Below, one piece after another: positions 11,223 through 64,000 of a stretch of 64,000 nucleotides of DNA. The stretch is from Dehalococcoidia bacterium. GTDB lineage: Bacteria > Chloroflexota > Dehalococcoidia > UBA2979. The position numbers and the translations under genes are program-made. Each line of letters begins with the position of its first letter. The first letter of the stretch is position 1. Under the pieces are notes generated by a model. That model searched no databases. It was not told where the DNA came from and saw only the letters and a list, made by a program, of their open reading frames with translations. The DNA lies in the NCBI GenBank assembly GCA_965237865.1, contig OZ250164.1, positions 309,217-373,216 of the forward strand, read 5' to 3'.

Positions 11223-11732
11223 GTGGAGACGAGAATCCTCGACTGGGACGACGTGCAGGGCCTGCTCGCGGGGTTGAGCGACCGCCTCGGTGAGGGCTCG
11301 GTGGTGTGGGGCGTGCCGCGCGGCGGCAGCCACGTCGCCTCGATGCTCAGCGTGCGCGGCGTCCGCGTCGCGCTCTCGCCCGTGGAGGCGACGGTCGCCG
11401 TCGACGACGTGATCGACACCGGCCGGACTGCCGAGCGCGTGCGCCTCCGCTACGGCATCGAGACGCTGGCGCTCGTCACGCGCCACGAGGGCGAGCTGTA
11501 CTACCTCTTCCCCTGGGAGCGCGCGGAGCTCGATAGCGGGTTGGACGCGGACGCCCGGGACCACGTCACGAGGCTGCTGCTGCTGCTCGGCGACGAGCCG
11601 CAGCGTGCGGAGTTGCAGCAGACGCCCGATCGCGTCGTCGAGTCGTGGAAGACGCTGTACGCGGGCTACCTCTCGGAGCCCGGCGAACTCAAGGCGTCGC
11701 TGAACTGGTTCAGCGACGCACCCCGGAGATGA
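11223..11732 (+). CDS. type-I phosphoribosyltransferase-like domain fused in frame to the N-terminal helix of GTP cyclohydrolase I; frame terminates at a C4-run frameshift
   Basis: GTG at 11223 follows GGAGCG. VVWGVPRGGSHVASML and VAVDDVIDTGRT give the PPi loop and PRPP-binding motif. This is followed without a stop by DARDHVTRLLLLLGDEPQRAELQQTPDRVVESWKTLYAGY, the FolE N-terminal helix. The frame stops at 11730-11732. Confidence 0.55.
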   Translation: METRILDWDDVQGLLAGLSDRLGEGSVVWGVPRGGSHVASMLSVRGVRVALSPVEATVAVDDVIDTGRTAERVRLRYGIETLALVTRHEGELYYLFPWERAELDSGLDADARDHVTRLLLLLGDEPQRAELQQTPDRVVESWKTLYAGYLSEPGELKASLNWFSDAPRR

Positions 11733-12121
11733 TCGTCGTGCGCGACATCTCCTTCCTCAGCAGCTGCGAGGAGCACCTGCTGCCCTTCTTCGGCACGGTC
11801 GGCGTGGCCTACCTGCCGAACGACCACGCCCTCGGCGAGAGCAAGCTGCACCAGATCGTCAGCGTCGTCAGCCGCAAGCTGCAGAGCCAGCAGCGCATGA
11901 CGCGCGAGATCGGCGAGGTCGTCTTCGACGCCGAGCGCACGCGCGGCGTCGCCGTGCACTCCCGTGCCACGCACCTCTGCTTCGCCGCGCTCGGCGCCGA
12001 GCGCGAGGGCGTGACCGTCGAGGAGACGTGGCTGTCCGGCGCCTTCGAGGCGGACCCGGGCACGCACTCGCGCTTCCTCGAAGCGCTGGGCGACGCCAGG
12101 GACGGCGTCAGTCCGGCCTGA
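11723..12121 (+). CDS. folE: GTP cyclohydrolase I (FolE) catalytic core, in a different frame from the N-terminal part (frameshifted gene)
   Basis: PEMIVVRDISFLSSCEEHLLPFFGTVGVAYLPNDHALGESKLHQIVSVVSRKLQSQQRMTREIGEVV...ATHLCF is the FolE core. Inserting one C into the C4 run at 11721-11724 restores a continuous FolE. The motif is CEEH where FolE normally has CEHH. Confidence 0.6.
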   Translation, partial: PEMIVVRDISFLSSCEEHLLPFFGTVGVAYLPNDHALGESKLHQIVSVVSRKLQSQQRMTREIGEVVFDAERTRGVAVHSRATHLCFAALGAEREGVTVEETWLSGAFEADPGTHSRFLEALGDARDGVSPA

Positions 12122-12130
12122 GCCGCGCTC

Positions 12131-13624
12131 CTACGCGAACCCGCGGCGCGCGAGGAAGCGCGGGTTGCTGATCCGCGTCGCGTCGAGCGCTCGGGTGCGC
12201 AGCCAGGCGGCGAGGGCGGCCTGCTCCGGGCCGGCGTCGTAGCGGCCCGCGCGGATGTCGCCAGCGAGGCGCGCCTCGGCGTCGCGCAGTGCGGCGCGCA
12301 CGTCCGCGTCGGCAGCAGCCGGTGCGCCCTCGATGGCGGCGAGGTCGGCAAGGGCGCGTCGTGCGGGCGCCTCGCCTGCTTCCAGTTCGCGCGCGGCGAT
12401 GCCCATCGCGTTGTCGGCCATGAGCAGCGCGTAGCGCTGCGCGCCCGGCACGTGCGGCGCGAGCTCGTCCATCAGCGCGCCGCGCGCGGCTTCGAGCAGC
12501 GCCGCGCCGTCGAGGGGATCGGATGCGGCTGACGCCACCGCGTCCGCCGGGGGCGAAGGCGTGGCGTCCGCGCCGCTGCCGTACTCGCCGCGCTCGCCCT
12601 CCTCGATCAGCGTCAGGATCTCTACTTCGATCTCGTCGACGATGCGGCCGGTCAGCGCCAGTTCCAGCGAGGGCTGGCGTCCGCTGCTGTGGCGCTCGCC
12701 CTGGTGGATGGCGATCACCGCCCAGCGCACGTGCGCCATCACCTCCCAGTAGTGGAGCGCCCTCGGCGGCAGCTCGCGCCCGTAGCCGCGCTCGAAGTCG
12801 GCGAGGTCGCCGAGGCCGCCGGCGCGGCGGTCGTAGCGGTTGAAGCGCCAGCAGCGGGCGCTGAACCAGCCGGCGTCATCGAGCGGATCGCCCCAGCGCG
12901 CGAACTCCCAGTCGAGGACCCCGTGCAGCCCGCCCTCGCCGACGAGGAAGTTGCCGGTCCGGTAGTCGCTGTGGACCAGCACCAGGCGGTCCGTCCGTGG
13001 CGCCTCGCGCTCCAGCCAGCGCAGGCCCCACTCCATGGCCGGCCGCGGCTTCGGGTGCGCGTCGAGGGCGGCTCGATACTCGGCGACGGCGGCGAGCGCC
13101 GGGCTCGGCTCGGGCGTGGGCAGCCACTCAAGGCCGGCCGTTCCCGGCTCCAGCGTCTGGATGCGCGCGAGCTCCGCGCCGAGCTGCTCGAGCAGCGCCG
13201 GACGCGGGCCGCCGAGCGTCTCGTCGCGCACAAGCAGATGCCCCGCCGCGACGCCCTCGACAAAGCGTGAGATGGAGAAGGCGCGTCCCAGCACGGAATC
13301 GTCGGCCTGCCAGAGCGGCTCCGGCACGGCGACGCCGGCCTCGAACGCCGCGCGCGCGATCGTGAACTCCTCGGCGACGCTGTGGCTCTCCTCCAGCCGC
13401 GCGTCGCCCTCGGCGCGCAGCACGATGGCGATCGGATCGCCACCGTGGGGGCCGCCCTCGAAGGCCACGTTGATGCGCCAGTGCTGGTGGATCGCGCCAC
13501 CCGTGAGCGGCGTCGTGTCGCCGATGCTCGCGCGCTCGGCTCCGGCGACCGCGGCGAGCCAGCCCGCGAGGGCGTCCCGCACCGCCTCGTCGCCGAGGTC
13601 CAGCGGCGCAGCGGCGGAGCTCAC
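12131..13624 (-). CDS. phosphotransferase-family protein (APH/choline-kinase fold, ACAD-associated) with C-terminal helical extension
   Basis: C-terminal 497 aa of the 731-aa track ORF; VLVHSDYRTGNFLVGEGGLHGVLDWEFARWGDP carries the HxDxxxxN and D motifs. GTG at 13622-13624 overlaps the ACAD stop by 4 nt. Confidence 0.75.
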   Translation of the reverse strand: MSSAAAPLDLGDEAVRDALAGWLAAVAGAERASIGDTTPLTGGAIHQHWRINVAFEGGPHGGDPIAIVLRAEGDARLEESHSVAEEFTIARAAFEAGVAVPEPLWQADDSVLGRAFSISRFVEGVAAGHLLVRDETLGGPRPALLEQLGAELARIQTLEPGTAGLEWLPTPEPSPALAAVAEYRAALDAHPKPRPAMEWGLRWLEREAPRTDRLVLVHSDYRTGNFLVGEGGLHGVLDWEFARWGDPLDDAGWFSARCWRFNRYDRRAGGLGDLADFERGYGRELPPRALHYWEVMAHVRWAVIAIHQGERHSSGRQPSLELALTGRIVDEIEVEILTLIEEGERGEYGSGADATPSPPADAVASAASDPLDGAALLEAARGALMDELAPHVPGAQRYALLMADNAMGIAARELEAGEAPARRALADLAAIEGAPAAADADVRAALRDAEARLAGDIRAGRYDAGPEQAALAAWLRTRALDATRISNPRFLARRGFA

Positions 13625-14817
13625 TGCCAGCTCCAGAAGTCGTGCTGCTCCTCCATGTAGAGCCGGGCGAGCACCATCTTGTGCACCTCGGATGCGCCGT
13701 CGACGAGCCGTGCCTGGCGGGCGTAGCGGTACATCCACTCCAGCGGCGTGTCCTTCGAGTAGCCGCGCGCGCCGCAGAGCTGGATCGCGGTGTCCACGGC
13801 GTTGTGCAGCGTCTCGGAGACGTGGATCTTGGCCATCGAGACGTCCTGGCGGGCGAAGTCGCCCTGGTCGAGACGCCAGGCCGCGCGCATCGTGAGCAGG
13901 CGGCCGACCTCGATCGCCATCGCGACCTCGCCGAGCATCCACTGCACGCCCTCGTGCTCGTGCAGCTTCTGCCCGAAGCTCTCGCGCTCGCGCACGTAGT
14001 CGGCGGCGATCGACATCGCGCGCTGCGCCATGCCGAGCCAGCGCATGCAGTGCGTGAGCCGCGCCGTGCCGAGGCGGATCTGCGTCGCCTTCAGGCCCTC
14101 GCCGACCTCCATCAGGCGCTGCTCGTCGGGGATCACGAGGTCGTCGAAGCGCAGCTCGCAGTGCCCGCCGTGCTCCTCGGGGCCCATGATCGGGATGCGC
14201 CGCTCGATCTCCCAGCCGGGCTCGGCGGCGTCGAAGAGGAAGGCCGTCAGGCCGCGGCGCTGGTCGTCGCCGGTGCGCGCGATCAGGATGAAGTGCTGCG
14301 CCTCGGCGCCGCCGGTGATGAACCACTTGCGCCCGTTGATGCGCCAGTGGTCGCCGTCCCGCTCGGCGGTGGTGAGCATCATCGAGGGGTCCGAGCCGGA
14401 GCCCGGCGCGGGCTCGGTCATGGCGAAGGCCGAGCGCACGCGGCCCTCGATGATCGGGTCGAGCCAGCGCTGCTTCTGCGCCTCGGTCCCGACGCGCTCA
14501 AGCAGGATCATGTTGCCGTCGTCGGGGGCGGCGCAGTTGAAGCTGACCGGCCCGAACAGCGAGCGGCCCATCTCCTCGTAGCAGGCCGCCATCCCCGCCA
14601 CGCCGAGGCCGAGGCCCCCGCGCTCGCGCGGCATCTGAGGCGCCCACATGCCCTGAGCCTTGACCTCCGCACGCAGTTCGCCGAGCAGGTCGAGGCGGAT
14701 GTTCTCGTGCTCGTCGAAGGAGTCCGGGTCGGCTTCCAGGGGGATGATGCGCGTCTGTGTGAAGTCGCGGATGCGCAGACGCAGTTCGTCTACCTCCGGC
14801 GAGAGCGTGAAGTCCAC
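13621..14817 (-). CDS. acyl-CoA dehydrogenase
   Basis: 398-aa C-terminal part of the 1093-aa track ORF, with ACAD hallmarks AFAMTEPAPGSGSDPSMM, the WRINGRKWFITGG region and GARGYSKDTPLEWMYRYAR. GTG at 14815-14817 follows AGGAGG at 7 nt spacing. Confidence 0.85.
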   Translation of the reverse strand: MDFTLSPEVDELRLRIRDFTQTRIIPLEADPDSFDEHENIRLDLLGELRAEVKAQGMWAPQMPRERGGLGLGVAGMAACYEEMGRSLFGPVSFNCAAPDDGNMILLERVGTEAQKQRWLDPIIEGRVRSAFAMTEPAPGSGSDPSMMLTTAERDGDHWRINGRKWFITGGAEAQHFILIARTGDDQRRGLTAFLFDAAEPGWEIERRIPIMGPEEHGGHCELRFDDLVIPDEQRLMEVGEGLKATQIRLGTARLTHCMRWLGMAQRAMSIAADYVRERESFGQKLHEHEGVQWMLGEVAMAIEVGRLLTMRAAWRLDQGDFARQDVSMAKIHVSETLHNAVDTAIQLCGARGYSKDTPLEWMYRYARQARLVDGASEVHKMVLARLYMEEQHDFWSWQ

Positions 14818-14940
14818 CGCCTGCCTCCTCGCGAACCCGTGCCGCCGCGAAGATAGCGCAGCCCGCCTGCCCGCGGTGCGGTCGCCCTCGGCAGGGCGGG
14901 GGCGCGAACGTACAATCGATGGTGCGCGAGGAAGCCGGCG

Positions 14941-16350
14941 ATGACGAACCCCTACCGCGAACTGCCCGCGATCGAGCGGCTGCTGGCGCACCCGCGCGTG
15001 GCCCCGCTCGCCGAGCGCCACGGCCACGACGCGATCGTGCGCGTCGCGCGCGAGGTGCTCGACGACTACCGCGCGGAGATCGAGCGCTCCGGCGCGCCGC
15101 CCGAGCAGCCCGCCGCCGAGGCGGTGGCCGATCGCGCCGCCAGCCTGGAGCCGAGCCTGCGCCGCGTCGTCAACGCGAGCGGCGTGATCATCCACACGAA
15201 CCTCGGACGCGCTCCGCTCTCGCAGGCGACGATCGCCGCGATGGCCGCCGCCTCCGAGGGCTACTCGAACATCGAGTTCGATCTCGACGCGGGGGAGCGC
15301 GGATCGCGCTTCAGCCACCTCGGCGGACTGCTGGCGAGCGTGAGCGGGGCCGAGGCGGGAATCGCGGTCAACAACAACGCCTCTGCGCTGCTGCTGGCGC
15401 TCTCGGCGCTCTGTACCGGCGGCGAGGTGGTGATCGCGCGCGGCCAGCTGGTCGAGATCGGCGGCGGCTTCCGCATCCCCGACGTGATGCGCCAGTCCGG
15501 CGCGACGCTCGTCGAGGTCGGCACGACGAACCGCACGTACCTGCGCGACTACGCGGAGGCGATCAGCGAGCGCACCGTGGCGCTGCTGCGCGTTCACGCC
15601 TCGAACTTCCGCGTCGTCGGCTTCACCGAGGAGACGCCGCTCCCGGCGCTGGCCTCGCTCGCGCGCGAGCGCGGGCTGTTGCTGCTCGACGACCTCGGGA
15701 GCGGGGCGCTGCTCGATCCCCGCGAGTACGGGCTGGCGGCGGAGCCGCTGGTGCGCGACTCGGTCGCCGCCGGCGTGGACGTGGCGCTGTTCTCCGGCGA
15801 CAAGCTGATCGGCGGGCCGCAGGCGGGTATCGCGGTCGGGCGCGAGCGCGCGATCGCAACGATGCAGCGCCACCCGCTCGCGCGAGCCGTGCGCATGGAC
15901 AAGGCCTCGATCGCCGGGCTGGCCGCCACCCTCGGCCACTACACCCGCGGCGAGGCCGTCGAGGAGATCCCGATCTGGCGCATGATCGCCGCCCCGCTCG
16001 ACGGGCTGCGGCGGCGCGCGCGCCGCTGGGTGCGCGCCTGCGCCGGCGACGCGGACGCCTCCGTCGACGTGGCGCGCTCGATGGTCGGGGGGGGCTCGCT
16101 GCCGGGCGAGGGCCTGGAGTCCGCGGTCTGCGCGATCGCCGCGCCGCCCGGCGGCGCCGACGCCTTCGCCGCCGCGCTGCGCCGCGCCGACCCGCCGATC
16201 GTCGCGCGCATCGAGCGCGGCGCGGTGCTGCTTGACCCGCGCACGGTCGCGCCCTCGGACGATCGCCACGTCGCCGACTCGCTGACCGCGCTCTGCGGCC
16301 CCGAGGAGGGCGCCGCCGACGGCAGCCCGGAGGATTCCACTGGACGATAA
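14941..16350 (+). CDS. selA: L-seryl-tRNA(Sec) selenium transferase
   Basis: 469 aa; VINASGVIIHTNLGRAPL, NNNASALLLAL and FSGDKLIGGPQAGI (PLP lysine) match the SelA family. Confidence 0.8.
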   Translation: MTNPYRELPAIERLLAHPRVAPLAERHGHDAIVRVAREVLDDYRAEIERSGAPPEQPAAEAVADRAASLEPSLRRVVNASGVIIHTNLGRAPLSQATIAAMAAASEGYSNIEFDLDAGERGSRFSHLGGLLASVSGAEAGIAVNNNASALLLALSALCTGGEVVIARGQLVEIGGGFRIPDVMRQSGATLVEVGTTNRTYLRDYAEAISERTVALLRVHASNFRVVGFTEETPLPALASLARERGLLLLDDLGSGALLDPREYGLAAEPLVRDSVAAGVDVALFSGDKLIGGPQAGIAVGRERAIATMQRHPLARAVRMDKASIAGLAATLGHYTRGEAVEEIPIWRMIAAPLDGLRRRARRWVRACAGDADASVDVARSMVGGGSLPGEGLESAVCAIAAPPGGADAFAAALRRADPPIVARIERGAVLLDPRTVAPSDDRHVADSLTALCGPEEGAADGSPEDSTGR

Positions 16351-18742
16351 GGCGCTCGCCGTCCTCGAGTTCCCGGCGATCCGGGAGCGGCTCGCGCGGG
16401 AGACCTCGTTCGCGGCCGGGCGCGAGCTGGCGCTGGCGCTGCGCCCCGTCGCCGACCGCGAGCGTGCGGTCCGGCGCCAGCGCGAGACCGCCGAGGCGGT
16501 GCGCCTGCGCACCCTGCGCGTCGACGTCGGGATGGGCGGCGTGCGCGACGTGCGGCCCTCGGCGCGCGCGGCGGGGCTTGGGCAGGTGCTCGCCGCCTCC
16601 GAGCTGCTGGAGATCGCGGAGCTCGCGAGGGCGTCGACGCGGCTGCGGCGCACCTTCGTGCGCACGCGGCAGGAGACGCCGCTGCTCTCCACGCGCGCCG
16701 CCGGACTCGCGGACCTCGAGGCGCTGCGCGAGCTAATCGCCACGGCGGTCGACGAGCGCGGCGAGGTGCGCGACTCGGCGAGCCGCGAGCTGGCGGCGAT
16801 CCGCCGCGAGCGCGACGCCGTGCACGGCCGCCTGCAGCAGCGCATGGAGGCGCTGCTGCGCTCCGCCTCACTGCGGCCCTCGCTGCAGGACCCGATCGTC
16901 ACGCTGCGCGACGGGCGCTACGTGCTGCCGGTGCGCGCCGAGGCCCGCAGCGCGGTGCCCGGCATCGTGCACGACAGCTCTGCCTCCGGCGCGACGATCT
17001 ACGTCGAGCCGCTCGCCGTGATCGAGCTCGGCAACCGCTGGCGCGAGCTGCAGGCGCAGGAGCGCCACGAGATCGAGCGCATCATGCGCACGCTCTCCGA
17101 GGCGGCCGGTGAGGCGGAGCACGAGCTCGTCGACGCCGTCGAGCGCCTCGCGCGACTCGACCTCGCGCTGGCGAAGGCGCGCCTCGCCGAGCAGATCGGC
17201 GCCGCCGACTTGACCGAGGCGGGGAACGACGCGCCCTGGCTCGTCGAGGCGCCCGCGGCGCTACGGCTGGTGGAAGCGCGGCACCCCCTGCTCGAGGGCG
17301 AGGTCGTCCCCGTCACCATCGAGGCCGGCGGCGAGACGCGCGCGCTGCTGATCACCGGGCCGAACACCGGCGGCAAGACCGTCGCACTGAAGACCGCGGG
17401 CCTGCTCTCGCTGATGGCCCTCGCCGGGCTGCCCGTCCCGGCCGACGAGGGCACCCGCATCCCCGTCTACGACGCCGTCTTCGCCGACATCGGCGACGAG
17501 CAGTCGATCGAGCAGTCGCTCTCGACGTTCTCGGGCCACGTGACGGCGATCATCGACATCCTCGAACGCGCCGGGCCGCGCTCGCTCGTGCTGCTCGACG
17601 AACTGGGCGCCGGCACCGACCCGACCGAGGGCGCCGCGCTGGCGATCGCGATCGTCGGGCGGCTCGTCGAGGCGGGCGCGACGCTGATCGCGACCACGCA
17701 CCACAGCGAGCTGAAGCTGTTCGCGCACCGCGAGGCGGGGGTCCTCAACGCATCCGTTGAGTTCGACGTGGAGACGCTCGCGCCCACCTACCGGCTGCGT
17801 ATCGGCGTGCCGGGCCAGTCCAACGCGCTCGCGATCGCCGAGCGGCTGGGCATGCCGGGCGCGATCGTCGAGGCCGCGCGCGAGGGCCTCTCGCACGGGC
17901 AGCGCGACCTCGAGGCGGTGCTCGGCGACCTGCGCACGCAGCTGAGCGCCGCCGAGGAGCGCGCCGCCCGCGCCGCCGCCGACCGCGACGCCGCCGAGGA
18001 GCTGCGCGGCGACCTCGAGCGGCAGCTCGCGACGCTGGCCGGCGAGAGCGAACGGCTGCGCGCCGAGTCGCGCGAGCGCGTGCGCGAGGAGGTCCGCGAC
18101 GCGGAGCGGATGCTGCAGCGCGCGCGCCGCGAGGTGGAGTCGGCGCGCCTCGAACAGGCGGCGGCCGACCTCGAGCGCGCGCGCGAGGCCGTCGCCGCGC
18201 TCGCGCCCGAACCGCCGCCCGCGCCGCCGCCCAGCGAAGACTCCCTCTCCCCGCGGGAGAGGGTTGGGGTGAGGGCTCCGCGCACGCTGCCGTCGCCGGA
18301 GCTGGGCTCGCGGGTCTGGCTGCGCGGCATCGGCTCACCGGGCGAGGCGCTGAGCGAGCCGGACGCGGCGGGCGAGTTCGAGGTGCAGCTCGGCGCGCTG
18401 CGCACCCGTGTGCGCCTCGCCCAGGTCGAGCGCATCGAGCAGCCGGACGGCGCGGTGATCGTGGCGGTGAGCACGCCGCCCGCGCCGAGCGCGCCCGAGC
18501 AGATCGAGATCCGCGGCCAGATCGTCGCCGAGGCGCTGCCCTCGGTGGAGGCCTTCCTCGACGACGCGGCGCGCGCCGGACGCGAGCGCGTGCGCATCAT
18601 CCACGGCAAGGGCACCGGCGCGCTGCGCCGCGCCGTGCGCGAGCTGCTCGCGCGCCACCCCCTGGTCACCGCCTATGAGAGCGGCACGCCCCAGGAAGGC
18701 GGCGAGGGCGTCACCGTCGCCCTCCTCGCCCACGTGCGGTAG
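16340..18742 (+). CDS. mutS2: endonuclease MutS2 (MutS domain plus C-terminal Smr)
   Basis: LITGPNTGGKTVALKTAGL (Walker A), DELGAGTDPTEGAALA, and a C-terminal Smr region (RIIHGKGTGALRRAVRELL). The N-terminus LDDKALAVLEFPAIRERL is conserved but lies upstream of the first canonical start (GTG 16499); CTG at 16340 with GGAGGA 6 nt upstream is the likely start. Confidence 0.85.
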   Translation: MDDKALAVLEFPAIRERLARETSFAAGRELALALRPVADRERAVRRQRETAEAVRLRTLRVDVGMGGVRDVRPSARAAGLGQVLAASELLEIAELARASTRLRRTFVRTRQETPLLSTRAAGLADLEALRELIATAVDERGEVRDSASRELAAIRRERDAVHGRLQQRMEALLRSASLRPSLQDPIVTLRDGRYVLPVRAEARSAVPGIVHDSSASGATIYVEPLAVIELGNRWRELQAQERHEIERIMRTLSEAAGEAEHELVDAVERLARLDLALAKARLAEQIGAADLTEAGNDAPWLVEAPAALRLVEARHPLLEGEVVPVTIEAGGETRALLITGPNTGGKTVALKTAGLLSLMALAGLPVPADEGTRIPVYDAVFADIGDEQSIEQSLSTFSGHVTAIIDILERAGPRSLVLLDELGAGTDPTEGAALAIAIVGRLVEAGATLIATTHHSELKLFAHREAGVLNASVEFDVETLAPTYRLRIGVPGQSNALAIAERLGMPGAIVEAAREGLSHGQRDLEAVLGDLRTQLSAAEERAARAAADRDAAEELRGDLERQLATLAGESERLRAESRERVREEVRDAERMLQRARREVESARLEQAAADLERAREAVAALAPEPPPAPPPSEDSLSPRERVGVRAPRTLPSPELGSRVWLRGIGSPGEALSEPDAAGEFEVQLGALRTRVRLAQVERIEQPDGAVIVAVSTPPAPSAPEQIEIRGQIVAEALPSVEAFLDDAARAGRERVRIIHGKGTGALRRAVRELLARHPLVTAYESGTPQEGGEGVTVALLAHVR

Positions 18743-18887
18743 GCAGCGCCGGATGCGCTGTCCGCCGGGTTGTACTGGGCGGACCCTGGTCATTGCGAAT
18801 GTGATATACCTGACGAGACCGCTTCGGCCGGGGGTGCCTGCGTCTCGCGCGGCGTTGGCGAGCGGTGGGCCGGGCCCGGTGAAACGC

Positions 18888-20561
18888 ATGACCTTGAGTA
18901 CTATCCCTCCCGCGCTGCTGGCGCTCCTCGGAGCAGTCGTCATCCTGCTGGCTGGCGCGCCAACGGCCCTGCACGCGCAGTCCACACCCTCGATTTCGAT
19001 CGAGCTGTCACCGGGTCAGCACGTCCCGCACACGGTCGCCCTCACGGGCGAGGTGACCCTGAGCAACCTGGCCCCTGCTGACTACTCGATGGTGACGCTC
19101 CGCGCCGACATCACCGGGCACGAGGATCGGACGAGCCACTGCTACGGCGAGGACACCAGCAGCGATATCGAACTCGCGGTGGACGAGAGTCTGGAGGCAG
19201 TAACGCTCAGGCTGTTCAAGCCCTGCACGAATGCCCCGGGCGGATTCGGAACGTATGACTACGCGCTCACGATCAGCGTATCGAGGGCCGATCCGATGCA
19301 GCCCGGCGACACCATCGAGCTGGTATCGATGCACGTGCCCTTCCTGGTGTCGACATACCTGACTCCCGGGGAGCAGACCCTTCCGGCCCCTGATCCCAGT
19401 GCGCTGGCCTGGTTTGACCCGGATCCCAGAACTTCCGCGATGTACGTGGGAGAGTGGCGCCAATTCCGCTTCCGCACGGACATTTCCAGGTATGCCGAAG
19501 ACCATCTGAACGTGTACGTGGACGCCGGCGATCCCGGTGACTTCGTTGCGAGATCGGGCGAAGGTCCTTCTCCCGGCAGCGCCGAGGAAGCCTGCAACGA
19601 CTCGCATCCAACGCAGAACTGGCGTCGTGCCATCCATCAGCCTCTCTGGGTTGTTCCCTGCAAGCCGGGTCCGGCAGTCTTTTGGCTGTCGCACGAGACC
19701 CTGGGCGTGCCGCCCCTCTACACCTACGAATTCGAGGTGTACCCGGCCGACGAATCTCGAGGAGGGCCGATCGTTGGTGGGCCGAGTGGCGGGGGCGGCG
19801 CTCCGCCCTCGTCCGGCCCCACGCCGAGTGGCGGGGGCGGCGCTCCGCCGTCGTCCGGCCCCACGCCGAGCGACGCCGACTTCGCCTGGACCGTCGATAA
19901 GGACATCGACGCGCTCGACGCCGGGAATGACGAGGCGACTGGCCTCTGGGGCGACGGCGCGACGATCTGGGTAGCGCAGAACAGCGACGGCGGCGGCGAC
20001 GGCGTCTTCGCCTACGACCTCGCAAGCGGCGAACGCCTCGAGGATCGCGAGTTCGAACTCGACACCGCCAACCTCGCCCCGCGCGGCCTCTGGTCCAACG
20101 GCGAGACGATCTGGGTTTCCGACAGCGGCAAGGAGAAGCTCTACGCCCACGACCTGGAGAGCGGCGAGCGCCTCCCGGCGCGTGACATCAAGCTCAGCGA
20201 TGCGAACGACGACCCGCGCGGCATCTGGTCCGATCGGACGACGATCTGGGTGCTCGACGACCGCGACGAGAGCGTCTATCTCTACGACCTCGGGAGTGGC
20301 GAGCAGACGGCCGTCTACGAACTCGACGCCGCCAACGACGACCCGCACGGCATCTGGTCCGACGGCGTCGCGGTCTGGGTCTCCAACCACGACCCCAAGC
20401 GGCTCTTCGCCTACCGCCTCGTCGACGACGCCCTCGTGCGCGAGTCAGACGAGGACTTCACGAGGCTGGGCCGGGCCAGCAACAACAGCCCGCGCGGCAT
20501 CTGGTCGGACTACAGCGTGATCTACGTCGTCGACGCCCTGGACGAGCAGGTCTACAGCTGA
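18888..20561 (+). CDS. secreted repeat protein (five ~50-aa beta-propeller-like repeats; Pro/Gly linker duplication)
   Basis: Signal peptide MTLSTIPPALLALLGAVVILLAGAPTALHA-QS. The C-terminal half has five tandem repeats of the form GIWSDGxTIWVxD...YAYDLxSGER. An exact tandem duplication GGGGAPPSSGPTPS x2 lies around 19790-19870. Confidence 0.55.
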   Translation: MTLSTIPPALLALLGAVVILLAGAPTALHAQSTPSISIELSPGQHVPHTVALTGEVTLSNLAPADYSMVTLRADITGHEDRTSHCYGEDTSSDIELAVDESLEAVTLRLFKPCTNAPGGFGTYDYALTISVSRADPMQPGDTIELVSMHVPFLVSTYLTPGEQTLPAPDPSALAWFDPDPRTSAMYVGEWRQFRFRTDISRYAEDHLNVYVDAGDPGDFVARSGEGPSPGSAEEACNDSHPTQNWRRAIHQPLWVVPCKPGPAVFWLSHETLGVPPLYTYEFEVYPADESRGGPIVGGPSGGGGAPPSSGPTPSGGGGAPPSSGPTPSDADFAWTVDKDIDALDAGNDEATGLWGDGATIWVAQNSDGGGDGVFAYDLASGERLEDREFELDTANLAPRGLWSNGETIWVSDSGKEKLYAHDLESGERLPARDIKLSDANDDPRGIWSDRTTIWVLDDRDESVYLYDLGSGEQTAVYELDAANDDPHGIWSDGVAVWVSNHDPKRLFAYRLVDDALVRESDEDFTRLGRASNNSPRGIWSDYSVIYVVDALDEQVYS

Positions 20562-22084
20562 TATGGAGTGACCGGTTGTCAAGCAGCACCGGCGGTGGTC
20601 GTGGCGATCCGGCTCCGGAACGGGGGGAGATGGACGAACGAGGGCGCTGCTTCGACGACGTGTCACTCTGATATTCGCGGGTTGCCTGGGGCCTTGCCGC
20701 ATGACCGTGCTTCGCCGGGAGGGGTCGCCGTCTACGGTCGCGGGTTGACGGCGCCGGGCGCCGCTGCCGCATAGCTGTACCGCGCGTCCTCCTGAGCCTG
20801 CCCTCGCTCATCCACCCCCTCCTGCTCCGGAGCGGCGTATCGCCAGCTCCGCCTTCGCCGCGGACCGCGCGCGTGCTGTCAGGCCGCCGCCTGCTCCCGG
20901 GCGCCGATGTTCAGCACCGCCCACAGGTAACCCGCGAGTTCACGGGCGACGGCCACGTTCGCCACGACCGATGGCTTGCCGTGAGCGGCCAGCCGCCGGT
21001 GGCGGCGATAGAGCCGGGTCTGCGCCCGGTCGGCCAACACCACGGCCCAGCCCGGCTGGCCCTCCCTGCGCTTGCGCAGCGCTGCCCCCACCCGCGGCGG
21101 GTGGCGGTAGTGCCAGGCGCTCTCCACCAGGATGCGGCGCACGTGGCTGTTCCCTGTCTTCGTGATCGGTCCCCGCCGCTGACGGGCGCCGCTGCTGTAC
21201 TCGCTCGGCGTGAGCCCGAGGTAGGACATCAACTGCCGGGCGCTGCCGAAGCGCGTGACGTCGCCGAGCTCGGCCAGCACCGTCATCGCCGTCACCGTGT
21301 CGACCCCGCGGAAGCAGCGCAGCAGCCCCACCGCCTCGCGGTAGTCGTCGCTGGCGGCACACGCGGCCAGTTCCTGCTCCAGCGTGCGCAGCCGCTCCTC
21401 CACGCCCTCGAGCGCGCGCAGGTAGTCGTCGAAGGTGGCCTGCGCGGCCGGGTGTTCGAAGCGCAGCGTCAGCAGCCAGCGGCGGTGCCGCAGCGTCCAG
21501 TTCCGGCCGTCGTAGGCGATGCCGCGCCGCAGCAGCAGCTTCGCCAGGCGGTGGCGCGCCCGGGTGCGGTCGGTCACGGCGTCCTCGCGCGCCCGGCAGA
21601 GGTCGCGCACCGCCTCCTGGTCGATGGTCGGGGGATGCACCGCCGTGAGCAGGTCCGCGCGCAGCAGCTCGGCCAGCTTCCTGGCGTCGCGGCGGTCGGT
21701 CTTGACGCGGTCGCCGGGCCGCCTGGGGATGAGCGCCGGCGCGATCACCTGGCATTCGATGCCCTCGGCCTCGAGCTGGCGCTGCAGCGCGAAGCCCCCC
21801 GGCCCCGCCTCGTAGCAGGCCACGACCGGCCCCGGCGCCATGCGCCGCAGGCGCTGCGCGAGCCGCTTCACCGCCTTCGGCTCGTTCGCCAGCTGCCACT
21901 CCTCGGGCCGCTCGGCCCCCGGCGCCAGCACCGCCACGTGGATCGCCCGCGCGTGTGCATCCATCCCTGCATATGTGGTAGTCATCTTCCTGACCGGCTC
22001 CTTTCGCATGCGGCTCTGCAGCCCTCGCGTCTGTAACCCGCGAGTTTGCGGACTCGGAGCCGGTCACTCCATACGGTCTACAAC
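20562..22084 (-). mobile_element. IS110-family insertion sequence (approximate boundaries)
   Basis: A DEDD transposase gene sits between two unrelated surface-protein ORFs, with a 318-bp non-coding flank on its 3' side and ~75 bp on its 5' side. The 14-mer GTAACCCGCGAGTT occurs at 20927-20940 and 22033-22046. Termini are not defined; IS110-family elements lack terminal inverted repeats. Confidence 0.5.
20879..21985 (-). CDS. IS110-family transposase (DEDD/RuvC-like N-domain plus Tnp C-domain)
   Basis: MTTTYAGMDAHARAIHVAVL... with C-terminal ...ITKTGNSHVRRILVESAWH, typical of IS110/IS1111 transposases. The second in-frame Met was chosen as start. Confidence 0.85.
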   Translation of the reverse strand: MTTTYAGMDAHARAIHVAVLAPGAERPEEWQLANEPKAVKRLAQRLRRMAPGPVVACYEAGPGGFALQRQLEAEGIECQVIAPALIPRRPGDRVKTDRRDARKLAELLRADLLTAVHPPTIDQEAVRDLCRAREDAVTDRTRARHRLAKLLLRRGIAYDGRNWTLRHRRWLLTLRFEHPAAQATFDDYLRALEGVEERLRTLEQELAACAASDDYREAVGLLRCFRGVDTVTAMTVLAELGDVTRFGSARQLMSYLGLTPSEYSSGARQRRGPITKTGNSHVRRILVESAWHYRHPPRVGAALRKRREGQPGWAVVLADRAQTRLYRRHRRLAAHGKPSVVANVAVARELAGYLWAVLNIGAREQAAA

Positions 22085-22726
22085 ATGCCCGACGCCATCG
22101 ACGCCCGGCTCGCCTCGCTGGCGCTGAGCGGCGTGGACATCGGCGAGTTCGACGGCCGCAGGCCGGTGTACGTGGGCGTCCTCGGGGAGGGCGTGAGCGA
22201 GACCACGGTCGAAGCGGAGACGGTCCAGTCCGGCGCGAGCGTCGCGATCACGCCCGCCGACGCTGATGATGACGCGGAGAACGGCCACCAGGCCGCAATC
22301 GAGGATGGCACGGAGATCACGGTCACGGTGACCTCGGAGGACGGTAGCCGGACGCGGGTGTACCGGGTGCGGATCGGCGAGCCGGAAGAAGGCGAGCCGG
22401 AAGATGGCGAGCCGGAAGAAGAGGACCAGGAACCGGGGCGCTCGCCGGAGTGCCTGCGCGGCCTGGTCGCGGGCCGCTTCAGCCTTGTCGTCTACGAGGG
22501 TGGCAGCCTGGCCGACCTCGAGTCCTGTGCGCGGAGCCTGTCGGTGACGGCGCTGTACAGCTGGCAAGACGGCGACTTCGTGCACTACATCCTGGGCGCG
22601 CCGGCGTTCGTGAACGAGGGGTTCGTGGCGCTCTTCCCGGCGGCTCTGCCTCCTGACACCCCGCTGATTGCCCAGCGCGAGCTGCCGCCGCCGGAGGCGG
22701 AAGCCCCCGCAGAGGACTCGCCGTAG
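22085..22726 (+). CDS. cadherin-like beta-sandwich domain protein (possible fragment) with acidic GEPE-repeat linker
   Basis: LASLALSGVDIGEFDGRRPVYVGVLGEGVSETTVEAETVQSGASVAITPAD...GTEITVTVTSEDGSRTRVYRVRI fits the cadherin-like beta-sandwich pattern, followed by the repeated linker GEPEEGEPEDGEPEE. No signal peptide; sits immediately 5' of the IS. Confidence 0.45.
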   Translation: MPDAIDARLASLALSGVDIGEFDGRRPVYVGVLGEGVSETTVEAETVQSGASVAITPADADDDAENGHQAAIEDGTEITVTVTSEDGSRTRVYRVRIGEPEEGEPEDGEPEEEDQEPGRSPECLRGLVAGRFSLVVYEGGSLADLESCARSLSVTALYSWQDGDFVHYILGAPAFVNEGFVALFPAALPPDTPLIAQRELPPPEAEAPAEDSP

Positions 22727-22838
22727 CCCGGCCGTCACGGCTGCGCGCCCGCCGCGGATCGCGTTGACGCTACCGGGGCGCGGGTGGACGATGATTCGGC
22801 CCAGCGCGCCGACCTGAATCCCCATCTCCGGAGGCACC

Positions 22839-28141: not shown

Positions 28142-30456
28142 TCAGCGCGAACTCCGCACCCACAACCGCTCGCCGTCGGAGCGCAACGTCACGTCCCCGT
28201 GCTCGTCCGTGCGGTAGAGGGCGATCGCGGCGTAGCGCGCGACCACCTCCGGGTGCGGGTGGCCGTGCCGGTTGCGCGCCCCGACCGAGGCGATCGCGAC
28301 TCTCGGCTCGACCGCCTCGAGGAAGACCTCGCTCGACGACGTGCGCGAGCCGTGGTGCGGCAGCACCAGCGCGTCCGCCCGCAGGTCGAGCCCGCTCGAG
28401 GCGAGCCACTGCTCGGCGGGCGCCTCGATGTCCGCGGGCAGCAGGATCCGCCGCTCGCCGATCGTCACCAGCAGCACGAGCGAGCGGTTGTTGGCGCCGC
28501 GGTGCGCGCGGCCCGCCGTGACGACGGGCGGCGAGAGCACCTCGATCGAGGTCCGCTCGCTGAGCCGGATGCGATCGCCGATGTCGAGCGCCCGCGCGCC
28601 GCCGTCGCCGTCATCGGGGGCCACGGCGGCGAGCGTCTCCGCGCTGCCGAGCAGCACGCCGACGCGCAGACGCCGCCGCAACTCCGCCAGCCCGCCCGCG
28701 TGATCGCTGTCGCCGTGCGTGAGCAGCACCGCGTCGAGCGTGCGGCCCTCGAGGGCGCGAGGCAGCGCCGTCAGCACGGCGCCGTCGGCCGGTCCGGTGT
28801 CCACCAGTACGGCCGCGCCGCGATCGCGCACGAGGATCGCCTGCCCCTGTCCGACATCGAGCACGGTCACGCTCGCCATGCCGTCCGAGGGCGTCAGCAC
28901 GGCCAGCCAGAGGCCCGCTGCCGCCGTCGCGAGCGCGACCGGCGCCGCGAGGCGCGCACGTTGCCCCGGCAGCGCGATCAGCGACGCCCGCCGGTTGAGC
29001 AGCCAGACGAGGCCGCCCAGCAGCGCGAACCAGCCCGCGCCGGCGAGGAGCGACGGTCGCAGCTCGACCGTCGCGATCGGCAGCGAGGCCATCGCCTTGA
29101 CGGCGGCGACGAAGGCCGCGGGCGCGAAGACGCCGGCGACCTCGACGAGCCGCGCGACGGGCTCGAGCCAGCCGAGCAGCGCCGCGACCGCGGCGACGAG
29201 CACGGTCGCCTCGTAGAGCGGCGCGACGGCCACGTTCGCCGGCGCCTGCAGCAGCGGCAGCGTTCCGAAGGCGGCGGCCTGCACCGGCAGCACCGCGAGC
29301 GAGGCCCCGACTGCGCCGCCGCCTCGGTAAACCCGGCCGCGAGGCTGCCCGGCGCCACGCCGAGGCGGGCGAGGGCGCGGTCGCGCAGCGGCGGCGCGAT
29401 CAGCAGCACCCCGACGGTCGCCGTCGCGCTCAGTTGGAAGGCCACGTCGCGGATCAGCAGCGGCCGCAGCGCCAGCATCAGCGCGAGCGCGTAGACGAGG
29501 TAGATCCAGGCGGGCGTGCGCCTCCCCGTGATCGCGGCGATCGCGATGCCGACGGCCATGATCGCCGCCCGCACCACCGGCGGCTCGGCCCCCGTGAGCA
29601 CGACGTAGCCCGGCAGCAGCGCGAGCGCGATCAGCGCCGCCTGCCGCCTCGCGACCAGCGCGCCGAGCAGGCCCACCGCCGTCCCGAGGAGCAGCGCGAT
29701 GTTCTGCCCGGAGACGACCAGCAGGTGGGTCGTCCCCGTGCGGCGCAGACTCTCCTCCAACGCCGCCGGCATCGTGCGCTGCCGCCCCAGCAGCATGCCT
29801 GCCGCCAGCGACGCCTCCGGCTCCGGCAGGGCGAGCTCGATGTTGCCGAGCGCCCAGCGCCGCATCCCTCGCAGCGCGTCGACGATCGCGGGCTCGGCGT
29901 TGCGTTCGAGCAGCGTCCAGCGCTGCGGGTACGCGGCGACGGCGTGGATGCCGCGGCTGCGCAGGAACGCCGCGTAGTCGAACTCCTCGAAGGCGCCGGG
30001 ACGCTCGACCTCCAGCGTTGCGGAGATGCGGTCGCCCGCACGCAGCGGCTGCAGCGGGGCAGGCAGCCTGAGCCGCAGTCCGCCCTCCGCCGCTGCGCCG
30101 TCGATCGACTCGACGCGCAGATCGAGGCGCGCGATCGCGCCCGACACGCGCGGGTCCGGGAGCACCACGCCCGTGATCTCGTGCACGCCCTCGAGGCTGG
30201 CGAGCGGCGGCGGGGCGCGCGAGTCCGCCTCGCTTCCCCGGGCGTGCCCGGCGGCGGCAAGGGCCACGACCGCGATCAGCATCAGCAACGTGCGGGCCCG
30301 GCCGCCGCGTCCGAGGCGCCAGAGCGCCGCCGCCGCGCTCGCCGCGAGCGCGGCCAGCAGGGTCACGGTCCACGGCCCGCCGATCAGCGCGCCGCCGATG
30401 CAGCCCGCGATGAACGCCGCCGCCGCAAGCGGCAGTGCGGGAACCCGCGCGCTCAC
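28142..30456 (-). CDS. comEC: ComEC/Rec2 competence protein (DUF4131 plus competence TM domain plus C-terminal MBL domain); reading frame broken in a C4/G4 run
   Basis: The N-part (track ORF 28978-30456) and C-part (track ORF 28142-30373, with MBL motif [12 protein letters not shown]) are in different frames. One extra G/C in the C4 run at 29305-29308 gives a continuous ...[35 protein letters not shown].... GTG start overlaps the comEA stop. Confidence 0.75.
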
Positions 30457-51691: not shown

Positions 51692-52192
51692 TCAGCCGCC
51701 GTGGTGCTGGCCGTGGCCGCCGCCGGCGGCGTGGATCTCGCTGCCCAGGACGGCCTCCTCGCGCTCACGCATCGTCACGGCGTCCTCGGCGGCGTCGTGG
51801 TCGTAGCCGAGGAGGTGGAGCAGGCCGTGCAGCACCACGTGGTGGAGCTCCAGCTCGAAGGTGAGGCCGGCGTCCTCGGCCTGGCGGCGCACGGCGGGCG
51901 CGGAGACGGCGATGTCGCCGAGGAACGGCGGAGGCTCGTCGCCGTCCTCGCGATCGTCGCGCGCCGCGGTCTCGTCCTCCTCGGCGGGGAAGGCGAGCAC
52001 GTCCGTGAAGTCCTCGATGCCGCGGTGCTCGCGGTTGAGCCGCAGCAGCAGCTCGTCGCCGGCGAAGAGCAGCGCGACGGCGGCGGCGTCCAGGCCCTCG
52101 CCGGCGAGGGCGTTCGCGATCATCACGCGTACGGGCCGCACGTCGAGGCCGCGCGCCGCGCCGTCCAGCTCGATCGAGATCTCGTAGGCCAT
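51692..52192 (-). CDS. ybeY: rRNA maturation endoribonuclease YbeY
   Basis: C-terminal 166 aa of the 1052-aa track ORF; HHVVLHGLLHLLGYDHD zinc-binding H3 motif; ATG chosen by counting back from the stop. Confidence 0.8.
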   Translation of the reverse strand: MAYEISIELDGAARGLDVRPVRVMIANALAGEGLDAAAVALLFAGDELLLRLNREHRGIEDFTDVLAFPAEEDETAARDDREDGDEPPPFLGDIAVSAPAVRRQAEDAGLTFELELHHVVLHGLLHLLGYDHDAAEDAVTMREREEAVLGSEIHAAGGGHGQHHGG

Positions 52193-52327
52193 GGATCGAG
52201 GGTACAGGGGGCCGTGGTTGCGCGCCGCGAGCGCGAGCGATGGCGGGCGGACGGCTGCCGGCGCGCCGCGCTGGTACACTGGCCGGGCGGCGACGGCCGA
52301 GTCCCCCGGTCGGCGCATGGGGTGTCG

Positions 52328-59682: not shown

Positions 59683-59757
59683 CGCTGGAATCGTAGCACC
59701 TGCACCCCGCAGGGCCACCTGCCGCGGCTCGGCCGGCATCAGGCACGCTGACTGCCC

Positions 59758-60135
59758 GTGAAGCTCACGATCGTCGTCCCCGCCTTCAACGAAGAGGCCT
59801 ACCTCGCCGCGACCCTCGATTCCATCAAGGCCGCCGCCGCGCACCTGCGCGCCCACTCCGACGCCGGGATCGAGACGATCGTCGTCGCCAACAACAGCGA
59901 GGACGGGACCGCCGCCATCGCTCGCGAGCAGGGCGCGAGGGTGGTCGACGAGCCGGTGCAGGGCATCGCGCGGGCCCGCACCGCCGGCGCCCGCAACGCC
60001 GAGGGTGAGGTGCTGGTCTTCGTCGACGCGGACGTGATCGTGCCGGACACGCTCCTCACGGCGATCCATGCTTCATCGCGCTGTTCCGTCGGCAAGGCGG
60101 TCTGGCAGGGCTGGTACAGGCACGAGGTGCGGTAG
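59758..60135 (+). CDS. glycosyltransferase family 2, N-terminal fragment (125 aa, probably truncated)
   Basis: MKLTIVVPAFNEEAYLAATLDSIKAAA...LVFVDADVIVP (DxD) is the GT2 N-terminal half; the reading frame stops after ~125 aa without the acceptor-binding half. Confidence 0.55.
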   Translation: MKLTIVVPAFNEEAYLAATLDSIKAAAAHLRAHSDAGIETIVVANNSEDGTAAIAREQGARVVDEPVQGIARARTAGARNAEGEVLVFVDADVIVPDTLLTAIHASSRCSVGKAVWQGWYRHEVR

Positions 60136-61573: not shown

Positions 61574-61603
61574 TTGACAGAACACATGTTTCTGCTTCAT
61601 GAT
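61574..61603 (+). promoter_or_regulatory. candidate sigma70-like promoter (TTGACA -35 plus weak -10) in front of the methyltransferase operon
   Basis: TTGACA at 61574-61579, then a 17-18 nt spacer, then TCATGA/CATGAT. AT-richer than the surrounding sequence. The -10 is weak. Confidence 0.25.
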
Positions 61604-62531
61604 GGCAGCCCATGAAGGTCTGGGGAGCATGACGCAGGCGAGTCTCGTTCCGTCTCCCCAGACGGAGCCCGACAAGATCCCAACTTCGCCTATCCCGGCC
61701 GTGAACGTCGCCTCCGTACCCCAGCGCAGCCCGCTCCGCTATCCCGGTGGTAAGACGTGGCTGATCCCGCATATCCGTGCTTGGCTCGAGGCATTGGAGT
61801 CCGAACAGCGACTGCTGATCGAGCCTTTCTGCGGCGGCGGCATCGTGTCGCTCACCGCAGTCATGGAAGGGTACGTCGAGCGGGCACTGATGGCCGAGAT
61901 CGATCGCGACGTAGCCGCGTTCTGGCACGCGGCGCTCCGTCACGGCGACGAACTGCGGAAGCGGTGGCTCGGCTTCGAACCAACGCGGGAGACGGTCGAG
62001 CAGTTGGCGCGTCAGCACCCGGAGAATGTCGTCGACCGTGGGTTCCGCACGCTCGTTCTGAATCGGACGCGCCGCGGCGGCATCCTGGCGCCCGGGGCGT
62101 CATTCACCCGGAACGGTGAGAACGGCAAGGGAATCAGATCCCGCTGGTACCCAGAGACGATCGCGAACCGGCTGCGTGAGATCTCCGGCTGCGTCGACCG
62201 GCTCGTGTTCTGCGAGACGGACGGGATGCAACTCCTCGCGGCGACCGTACGAACTCCAGGGTCGGTCGTGTTTGCCGATCCGCCTTACACAGCCGGAGGT
62301 AAACGGGCTGGCGCACGCCTCTACGCTTCGCACGAGTTCGATCACGCGGACCTGTTCGCGCTGTTGGATGACTCTGGGGCAGAGTTCCTGATGACCTACG
62401 ACCGCGCGCCAGAGATTGTTTCGCTCGTGGAGAAGCATGGGTTCTGTGCTGTCGGCGTCTCGATGAAGAACACGCACCACGCGCAAGTACAGGAGTTGGT
62501 GATCACGCGGCGTCCGGTGTTCTCGGGATGA
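61599..62531 (+). CDS. DNA adenine (N6) methyltransferase, Dam/D12 class
   Basis: RYPGGKTWLIPHI, EPFCGGG (motif I, FxGxG), FADPPYTAGG (motif IV, DPPY). Alternative start ATG 61629 (MTQASL...) with GGGGAG upstream. Noticeably lower G+C than flanking core genes. Confidence 0.8.
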   Translation: MMAAHEGLGSMTQASLVPSPQTEPDKIPTSPIPAVNVASVPQRSPLRYPGGKTWLIPHIRAWLEALESEQRLLIEPFCGGGIVSLTAVMEGYVERALMAEIDRDVAAFWHAALRHGDELRKRWLGFEPTRETVEQLARQHPENVVDRGFRTLVLNRTRRGGILAPGASFTRNGENGKGIRSRWYPETIANRLREISGCVDRLVFCETDGMQLLAATVRTPGSVVFADPPYTAGGKRAGARLYASHEFDHADLFALLDDSGAEFLMTYDRAPEIVSLVEKHGFCAVGVSMKNTHHAQVQELVITRRPVFSG

Positions 62532-63430
62532 AGGCTCCCCGCTACGGCATCGCGGAGTGGTACGGCCAGCGGTTCGCCACGCTCACGCCAGCGGCGCGCA
62601 CACGGCTCGCTGACCGCGCGCTTGGTGGCGGTGAGCCCCCACCCTGCCCGTTCCAGGACGGCGAGCCCCCGTGTTCCAAGAAGTACGGTGTCTGCTCCAT
62701 CGACCGGTACGCGGAGGGTGACGATAGTCGGCTCGGCGAGCCGGACGGGGAGCCGGTCATTACCTGCCCGCGAAGATTCGAAGAGGGCCGCCTACTTGTA
62801 CTCTGGCTCGCCGAGATCGTTGGTTTCCCTCCGGGTCAGGTACAGATCGCCCGTGAAGTTGCGTTCATGCGGAACCCGAACACGGGCCGCGCAGCCGGGA
62901 TGATCGACTTGGTAGTGGCAACGGACCCGAACGGCAGGATCGAGTGGTACGGGATGGAGATGCAGGCCGTCTACTTCTCGGGTAGCGGGATGCCGGCGGA
63001 AATCGAAGCTCAGCGGAGCGAGCCCGGCGACGAGCGCTCCGCGCCCTTCCCCAACGCTGTCCGCCGTCCGGACTGGCGCTCGTCGAGCGCAAAGCGTCTG
63101 ATGCCACAGTTGGACGTCAAGGTTCCGCTGCTCCGGCAGTGGGGGCGTAAGACCGCCGTCGCGGTGGACCGGCCATTCTTCGACTCGATCGGGGGTCCGA
63201 GCGTCGCGCCCAGTGACGACCTTGATGCCGGCGACGTGATCTGGATGGTACCCGACCTCGTCGCCGACAGCAGCGGCCGGTACCACTTGGAGCGCGGGCA
63301 CTGGGAAGTGCTGACACTCGAAGACTCGCGGCGCAAGCTACTCTCGGCCGAACCTATCTCTCGCGCCGCGTTCGAAGATGTGCTTCGGAGCAAGCTCGAG
63401 CCGCTTAGGCGCGCACAGGATGGTCCATGA
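62528..63430 (+). CDS. putative restriction endonuclease-like protein (Cys-rich N-terminal metal-binding module plus PD-(D/E)xK-like core)
   Basis: ATG overlaps the methyltransferase stop (ATGA). The N-terminus carries a five-Cys cluster (CPFQDG...CSKKYGVCSIDRY...ITCPRRF). A central MIDLVVATDPNGRIEWYGMEMQAVYFSG segment looks like a beta-strand D...E.E/Q nuclease core. The functional call is inference from context. Confidence 0.4.
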   Translation: MKAPRYGIAEWYGQRFATLTPAARTRLADRALGGGEPPPCPFQDGEPPCSKKYGVCSIDRYAEGDDSRLGEPDGEPVITCPRRFEEGRLLVLWLAEIVGFPPGQVQIAREVAFMRNPNTGRAAGMIDLVVATDPNGRIEWYGMEMQAVYFSGSGMPAEIEAQRSEPGDERSAPFPNAVRRPDWRSSSAKRLMPQLDVKVPLLRQWGRKTAVAVDRPFFDSIGGPSVAPSDDLDAGDVIWMVPDLVADSSGRYHLERGHWEVLTLEDSRRKLLSAEPISRAAFEDVLRSKLEPLRRAQDGP

Positions 63431-64000
63431 ATGGTGAACGATCTCTCGCCTGGTTCGTACTTCAAGTTTTACGCTGGCTATCGGGGCAACTGCCCACGGT
63501 GCGGCACGAAGGCTGTGACCTTTAAGCGGCTGTTTCCAGAAACAATAAACGAGCTGTTCCTCGTGCGTGTGATGGTGCTTCGTTGCGAGCACTGTCAGAG
63601 GGCGTTCACAGCCGAAACTGAGGTCCTAAGTACGGACACAGGGAATACGCGAATGTTCCGCTTCTACCCTCCAGCGGGGGTTGAGGTTACTCCCAGCCCC
63701 TTTCTTCCCGAAGGCTCAGGAATCGTCGAGTCACTTCAGGAGGCGAGACTCTGCGGTGCCGTTGGAGCAGGTGGTGGGCGGCTGCATGTTGGCTCGTCGT
63801 GCGATCCAGCTCGTTGTGCGCGATAGGGGCGCGAGCGGCAAGAACCTCGCCGACGAAATCGATTCGCTTGAGATTTCCGAAGACCTTAAGACCGTCGCCC
63901 ACTCGATCAGGCTCATCGGCAACGAAGCAGCACACCCTGACCTTGATGACTGGAGCAACGTCACCAGCCAAGATCTCCTGATGCTGTTGGGGCTGATATC
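63431..64000 (+). CDS. zinc-ribbon plus DUF4145-domain protein (frameshifted in a G-run; 3' end beyond window)
   Basis: The N-part CPRCGTKAVTF...CEHCQRAFT is two CxxC ribbons. After a frame change near 63771-63780 the sequence reads ...GCMLARRAIQLVVRDRGASGKNLADEIDSLEISEDLKTVAHSIRLIGNEAAHPDLDDWSNVTSQDLLMLLGLI, which matches the DUF4145 consensus (...IR.IGN.AAHP...). ATG lies immediately after the upstream gene stop. Confidence 0.6.

Follow-up and report, generated by a model that had tools for sequence, protein, structure and literature searches.

Bacterial genes are put out of frame in several well-described ways, and this article concerns three genes that change frame within 64,000 nucleotides (nt) of contig OZ250164.1 (positions 309,217 to 373,216 of the forward strand; assembly GCA_965237865.1), from an uncultured soil Dehalococcoidia. 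We call this whole stretch the window. The genes are a folE-like gene, comEC and a gene for a Zn-ribbon-DUF4145 protein. Their closest described counterparts are the frameshift pseudogenes of bacterial genomes, in which a small insertion or deletion (indel) interrupts an otherwise conserved open reading frame (ORF), the orthologues are intact and the gene is dispensable. All of this applies to the three genes, and the little or no relaxed selection in the window's genes points to recent events. They depart from the pattern in that a second sequence corroborates only one of the three lesions, and the consensus of a metagenome-assembled genome (MAG) may not represent a single clone. On balance we lean towards reading the three lesions as genuine, recent, strain-level losses of function. 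The original prediction had favoured sequencing or assembly error and kept genuine inactivation as its alternative; it is the alternative that we now prefer. Genuine inactivation is firm for the folE-like gene; for comEC and the DUF4145 gene we infer that the lesions are in the DNA and not just in the consensus.

Three other kinds of frame change are well known. Homopolymer artefacts of long-read, 454 and Ion Torrent data (the subject of IDEEL-type tests) leave split or truncated gene calls much like those described here, and they are present in related contigs, for example in one that we shorten to ctg433655. The window's lesions, in contrast, are not changes of run length, and the window is right at every run that was checked. 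Phase-variable contingency loci, familiar from Neisseria, Haemophilus and Campylobacter, switch by slippage in simple-sequence repeats, and a +/-1 change of frame would likewise turn one of our genes off. The window, however, lacks a long repeat tract, one of its events is a loss of four nucleotides in unique sequence and there is no variation in tract length among relatives. Then there are programmed frameshifts: +1 in prfB, -1 in dnaX and those of the IS3 transposases. As in those cases, two overlapping ORFs here jointly encode one protein family, but the frame change occurs in no homologue, and neither a slippery site nor any stimulatory context accompanies it. In the window itself a single ORF makes up dnaX (51422-54124).

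The three lesions and their placement

The host is known from a MAG of 72% GC. Its nearest relatives by genome are MAGs of uncultured Dehalococcoidia, at about 92-93% nucleotide identity, with the Tepidiformaceae more distant; a scan of GTDB found no genome of the same species, its top matches being those at about 92-93%. The source contig of the window is 3,478,993 bp long (NCBI and ENA), and its calls for the three genes are fragments (P0249, P0244, P0242 and P0263). A second contig carries much of the argument. This is ena:ERZ26167216:ctg433655_3.54x_l (about 3.5x), which we compared as three pieces (L032, L003 and L034); over 11604-27758 it has no substitution against the window, and the two differ only by four 1-nt indels, all within 11604-22117. 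The lesions were placed by aligning the DNA to that of relatives, four at site 1 in the folE-like gene (L001, L002, L006 and L007), four at site 2 in comEC (L003, L004, L006 and L035) and one at site 3 in the DUF4145 gene (L033).

All three frame changes are confirmed, from the ORFs, from Pfam and from the homologue P0241, each within about 10 nt of where the original prediction had it. The genes it named and the net effects on frame (-1 for the folE-like gene, -1 for comEC and +1 for the DUF4145 gene) were right, as was its caution over the gene calls. Where we part company is over the nature of the events. The folE-like gene lacks a lone G (-1), comEC lacks four bases between two CG dinucleotides (-4) and the Zn-ribbon-DUF4145 gene has an extra base, best read as G becoming GG (+1). 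Each gene is interrupted by a small indel other than a change of homopolymer length, and the most likely outcome would be strain-level pseudogenes in dispensable genes: one for competence, one from a defence island and one for a paralogous enzyme. Close orthologues are intact in every case (nine ComEC, many PRTase-FolE-like proteins of about 300 aa and one DUF4145 protein of 192 aa; PRTase stands for phosphoribosyltransferase).

Take the folE-like gene first. Its four relatives, locally 90-95% identical to the window, read AGCGAGCGCACGCC and then (G/C)GAG, where the window reads AGCGA-CGCACCCC (alternatively written AGCGA-CGCACCCCGGAG). The missing base is a lone G (AGCGA^CGCAC), 5 nt upstream of the CCCC run that had been held responsible, and none of the four relatives has that run. 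A gap placed in CCCC costs five mismatches, against one at the lone G, and with the G put back the protein reads SERTPEM, as does the intact 302-aa homologue P0001, to which the repaired protein is 92% identical. The identical deletion is found, base for base, in ctg433655 (L032), a contig whose own errors are of another kind. The 10-mer GCGAGCGCAC is intact at 5319-5328 and at 15566-15575, both of them coding, and this speaks against a systematic deletion tied to methylation or to sequence context, which we rejected as a deterministic explanation. Recurrence in a contig with different errors, together with the correct reading of the 10-mer elsewhere, excludes a random consensus error and makes a deterministic context error unlikely. 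Judged by these alignments, the folE-like deletion is very probably real.

What the gene encodes deserves a word. The repaired protein matches GTP_cyclohydroI (PF01227) in one stretch, over profile positions 3-177 of 179 (1.6e-46), and belongs to a group of fusions of about 300 aa that join a PRTase-like domain (with the VAVDDVIDTGRT motif) to a GTP-cyclohydrolase-I (GCH-I) domain. The canonical active-site motif of GTP cyclohydrolase I is CEHH, in the region of Cys110, His112 and His113 of the Escherichia coli enzyme. It is present in the canonical proteins P0037 and P0065, whereas the motif reads CEEH in the window and in its close relatives, and CEKH or CENH in fusions further afield. With CEHH replaced by CEEH, the name folE is overstated, and the gene is better called a FolE-like (PRTase-like/GCH-I-like fusion) paralogue. 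The fusion architecture is widespread and has no name. In at least seven assemblies the gene is broken at a different position. Between the stop of the acyl-CoA synthetase gene and the folE-like start lies a 31-nt insertion with a G6 run (11179-11209), specific to the window and absent in L001, L006 and L007.

In comEC, which is spanned by overlapping minus-strand ORFs (28978-30456 and 28142-30373), the relatives have four bases that the window lacks, as in GAGGCGGCGGCG-GTCG-CAGTCGGGG or, in L003, GAGGCGGCGGCG-GTCG-CAGTCGGGGCC. CG microhomology flanks the deletion; its placement is ambiguous by 2-3 nt, and it lies 5-8 nt from the GGGG run of the coding strand. Nine intact relatives (eight aligned proteins and the ComEC of L006) share the same 15-residue stretch at the junction, and with the four bases put back the window's ComEC carries it too. 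The nine intact ComEC proteins are 772 aa long; that of L003 (P0121) is 97% identical to the window's repaired protein, and relatives in JGI are at most 71% identical. After repair, Pfam finds Competence at 1-269 of 270 in one stretch, plus DUF4131 and Lactamase_B, the full ComEC/Rec2 architecture.

The surroundings of comEC are peculiar. Over 27759-31764, which takes in comEA and comEC as well as the 5' part of the RNase PH gene, the window and ctg433655 differ by 126 substitutions (2.9%), as against none over 11604-27758. From the sequences, this block may be either a tract of homologous recombination at a DNA-uptake locus or a switch of strain in one assembly. Look-ups through ComEA, MutS2 and RNase PH did not find the window's comEC haplotype a second time: those with MutS2 and RNase PH led only to ctg433655 and to L035, a 97.4% haplotype that has the four nucleotides. 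Exact-protein look-ups with the acyl-CoA synthetase, ComEA and P0242 gave no match. It would be attractive to see here a real null allele of comEC segregating in a recombining natural population, its 4-bp deletion lying within a tract (27759-31764) that is at least 4 kb long. We consider that rather improbable.

At the third site the comparison is with L033, which encodes P0241, an intact, syntenic homologue of 192 aa, beside an IMPDH-like gene and 59% identical to the window's protein on both sides of the junction. An extra G placed in the GG of CA(GG)TG (63770-63771) leaves two mismatches against L033, and one placed in GGG (63776-63778) leaves five; the GG placement gives VGAVVGGC, compared with VGAVMGGC in P0241. 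The alignment therefore hints that the extra G sits in the GG, a placement that is suggestive only because nucleotide identity to L033 is about 70%. Pfam does not tell the two repairs apart (about 44 bits each). DUF4145 (PF13643) is matched at 44 bits, above the gathering cut-off of 23.1; the whole match falls downstream of the frame change, and it starts at profile position 15, as it also does in the intact homologue. Because it begins after the junction, the continuity of this gene rests on P0241. The claim that the repaired proteins align continuously with their families thus stood for GTP_cyclohydroI and Competence; for the third protein it is P0241, not the profile, that bears it out. Comparison of sequences singles out neither a real mutation nor an artefact in this gene.

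Table 1. Coordinates in the window of the fragments, lesions and neighbouring runs of the three genes.
Feature	Position	Strand	Basis
folE-like gene, 5' fragment	11223..11732	+	169 aa, premature TGA at 11730-11732; exact protein P0263 on source contig
folE-like gene, 3' fragment	11729..12121	+	130 aa from internal ATG; P0249, exact match on source contig and ctg433655
1-nt deletion, lone G absent between A11716 and C11717	11716..11717	+	L001, L002, L006 and L007 all read AGCGAGCGCAC
CCCC run of the original prediction, not the lesion	11721..11724	+	relatives ACGCC; run due to a synonymous ACG>ACC substitution
comEC, 5' fragment: DUF4131 and most of Competence domain, then out-of-frame tail	28978..30456	-	ORF list; Pfam on repaired protein
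comEC, 3' fragment: end of Competence and metallo-beta-lactamase domain, 383 aa	28142..29293	-	P0244, exact match, source contig only
4-nt deletion, GTCG/CGGT missing (coding strand)	29313..29316	-	4 nt present in L003, L004, L006 and L035
GGGG run (plus-strand CCCC) of the original prediction, not the lesion	29305..29308	-	same length in intact L003; GGCG in L004, L006 and L035
DUF4145 gene, 5' fragment, 131 aa	63431..63826	+	ORF list; aligns to N-terminal half of P0241
Stretch GGTGGTGGG with one extra G, best placed in GG 63770-63771	63770..63778	+	codon-level alignment to syntenic L033 gene
DUF4145 gene, 3' fragment with DUF4145 domain, runs past window end	63756..64000	+	P0242 (115 aa, from GTG 63756), 100% identical, source contig

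Reading accuracy across the window

How far can the letters of the window be trusted? At 71.8% G+C it is crowded with G/C runs: 352 of four bases, 92 of five, 11 of six and a single G8. Of the 104 runs of at least five, 90 are in coding segments, where every one leaves the frame undisturbed. The G8, within selA, keeps it (Pfam match 1-366 of 367), as do several 6-mers. Against ctg433655, which has one extra base in a G/C run at each of 12553, 14569, 21053 and 22011, the window is correct at all four disagreements in run length; its APH+DUF6285 gene and its acyl-CoA dehydrogenase gene are complete, and the copies in ctg433655 are broken. A second copy of an IS110 insertion sequence (L005, 1533 bp, 99.87% identical, no gaps) also agrees with the window.

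An indel census against five relatives (5.6-40.5 kb, about 33 genes) turned up only two window-specific indels that break a frame, those of the folE-like gene and comEC. The other window-specific indels are of 3, 6 or 31 nt, the longest intergenic and the rest frame-neutral, and the remaining differences from the five relatives that are not a multiple of three are intergenic or compensated. Elsewhere in the window a census with Pfam found no further split gene, with full-length domains in uvrA, nuoA/C/D/H/J/K/L/M/N, dnaX, recR, recO, metG and tatD. The relatives are noisier. Over about 10 kb to which L006 and L007 align as well, L001 shows 17 private indels of 1-3 nt; in L032 and L003 the private indels are all of 1 nt, and ctg433655 has its four +1 run errors within 16 kb.

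Error or inactivation?

One rival deserves serious attention, though we rate it unlikely: that the lesions are consensus errors of long-read metagenome assembly unconnected with homopolymers, either random indels at modest coverage or mis-polishing between strains. It would account for comEC and the DUF4145 gene, and for the folE-like gene too if ctg433655 shares its source reads. Several points weigh with it and against genuine inactivation. At all three sites the support consists of assembled sequences; the comEC and DUF4145 lesions are known from the source contig alone, and ctg433655 may share a sample or reads with that contig, so that its independence is something we infer. About 4 indels per 100 kb have been reported for assemblers of Oxford Nanopore Technologies metagenomes (PMC13087279), and three in 64 kb is a comparable rate. 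Related public long-read contigs are rich in private frameshifts, scattered and often outside homopolymers (L001, P0003-P0005 and P0264-P0268 among them). The comEC deletion falls inside a 12-nt patch that varies among the haplotypes of the population, where a mixed-strain consensus could err, and a haplotype diverged by 2.9% beside 16 kb of identity could itself be a mixture of strains. Finally, comEC has 18 synonymous and 6 non-synonymous changes on the window branch. Purifying selection persists, and the lesion is then either very recent or an artefact.

Set against these points, the folE-like deletion is repeated in a contig that errs differently, and no window error was detectable at the four homopolymer sites, in the 90 long coding runs or in about 33 genes compared with relatives. 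Deletions of 4 bp do not appear as consensus errors even in the noisy contigs of this lineage, where private indels measure 1-3 nt. All three lesions are in dispensable genes, with metG, dnaX, the nuo genes, uvrA, mutS2 and serA intact. The region shows real decay and flux besides, in the insertion of an IS110 element, an internal deletion of 115 codons in a GT2 glycosyltransferase gene and an inserted restriction-modification cassette. As for timing, selection shows no relaxation in comEC, and the 12 synonymous to 9 non-synonymous changes of the folE-like gene on the window branch do not differ significantly from the 111:39 summed over three neighbouring genes. The lesions, if real, are recent.

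The explanation first proposed, errors of +/-1 in the length of short G/C homopolymers (CCCC, GGGG and GGG) made by a homopolymer-inaccurate chemistry, now looks highly improbable. Its appeal is easy to see. A run of three or four lies within 5-9 nt of each lesion, one base added or removed there restores the frame, and ctg433655 does show errors of this sort, its four +1 changes in runs. But four to five relatives at each of sites 1 and 2 place the change outside a run, the event at site 2 is of 4 nt, the GGGG there is just as long in the intact allele, and relatives lack the CCCC of site 1. The lesions accordingly do not all lie inside homopolymers, as had been claimed: one is a lone G outside a run, one a 4-bp deletion, and the third involves GG or GGG at best. 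Nor does the supposed signature of homopolymer error hold up in a window that handles its long runs correctly, G8 included, and whose folE-like deletion recurs in a second assembly. Proximity to a run counts for little here. A G/C run of at least four lies within +/-8 nt of 13.5% of the window's positions, and one of at least three within +/-8 nt of 46%; with runs this frequent, a run nearby is weak evidence for where a lesion lies.

Least probable of all, and rejected here, is a functional switch, by programmed ribosomal frameshifting or by phase variation at a simple-sequence repeat (the latter also raised in the original prediction), for which nothing speaks beyond the presence of a frame change, and against which stand the single frame of every homologue examined (nine close ComEC, dozens of PRTase-FolE-like proteins and P0241), the absence at any site of a slippery heptamer, of seven or more identical bases or of a multi-copy short repeat (the tracts at all three are of four at most, and relatives differ there by substitutions, not by tract length), and a comEC lesion that is a 4-nt deletion in unique sequence.

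Neighbouring features and meaning

Other features of the window are worth recording. An IS110-family element occupies 20552-22084, with a minus-strand transposase gene (20879-22009, 376 aa). Its copy in L005 stands in an unrelated context in another metagenome; the element is absent from this position in L001 and present in ctg433655, so its insertion is recent. The GT2 glycosyltransferase gene (59752-60135, and on to about 60400; 127 aa) is shorter than the syntenic 241-aa gene of L033 by about 115 internal codons, lost in frame. We considered it as a fourth frameshift, with its continuation sought in another frame, and rejected the idea, since the deletion is internal and in frame. Downstream of it about 1 kb of L033, including a gene for 187 aa, is also missing, a real structural deletion. 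Compared with L033, a cassette has been inserted between the IMPDH-like and Zn-ribbon-DUF4145 genes: a D12-class N6-adenine methyltransferase (61599-62531) and a NotI-like restriction endonuclease (62528-63430), within a segment (61578-63430) of lower GC content (58-66%). Finally, the intergenic stretch that separates dnaX from the last nuo gene (50786-51420) contains three direct repeats, each of about 160 nt and 72-90% identical, along with five copies of a G5...C5 hairpin, CTGTGGGGGCTTYGCCCCC, without a match in Rfam. The window as a whole contains no tRNA gene and no Rfam match.

What, then, do three broken genes amount to? On our preferred reading they are a case of ordinary pseudogenisation, of a kind already known; the one point of possible biological novelty is a polymorphism in which competence is lost. 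Their main value is a lesson in quality control. At 72% GC short G/C runs adjoin almost any position, and the repair of a frame by a base added to the nearest run is no guide to where a lesion lies or to whether it is a homopolymer error; for that, close relatives have to be aligned. The comEC, PRTase-GCH-I-like and DUF4145 genes should be annotated as disrupted, with no silent repair, and the competence of this strain for DNA uptake should not be assumed. Were the comEC null allele real and segregating, improbable as we think it, the locus would offer a snapshot of allelic replacement at a DNA-uptake locus, together with a polymorphism for competence loss, in an uncultured soil Dehalococcoidia.

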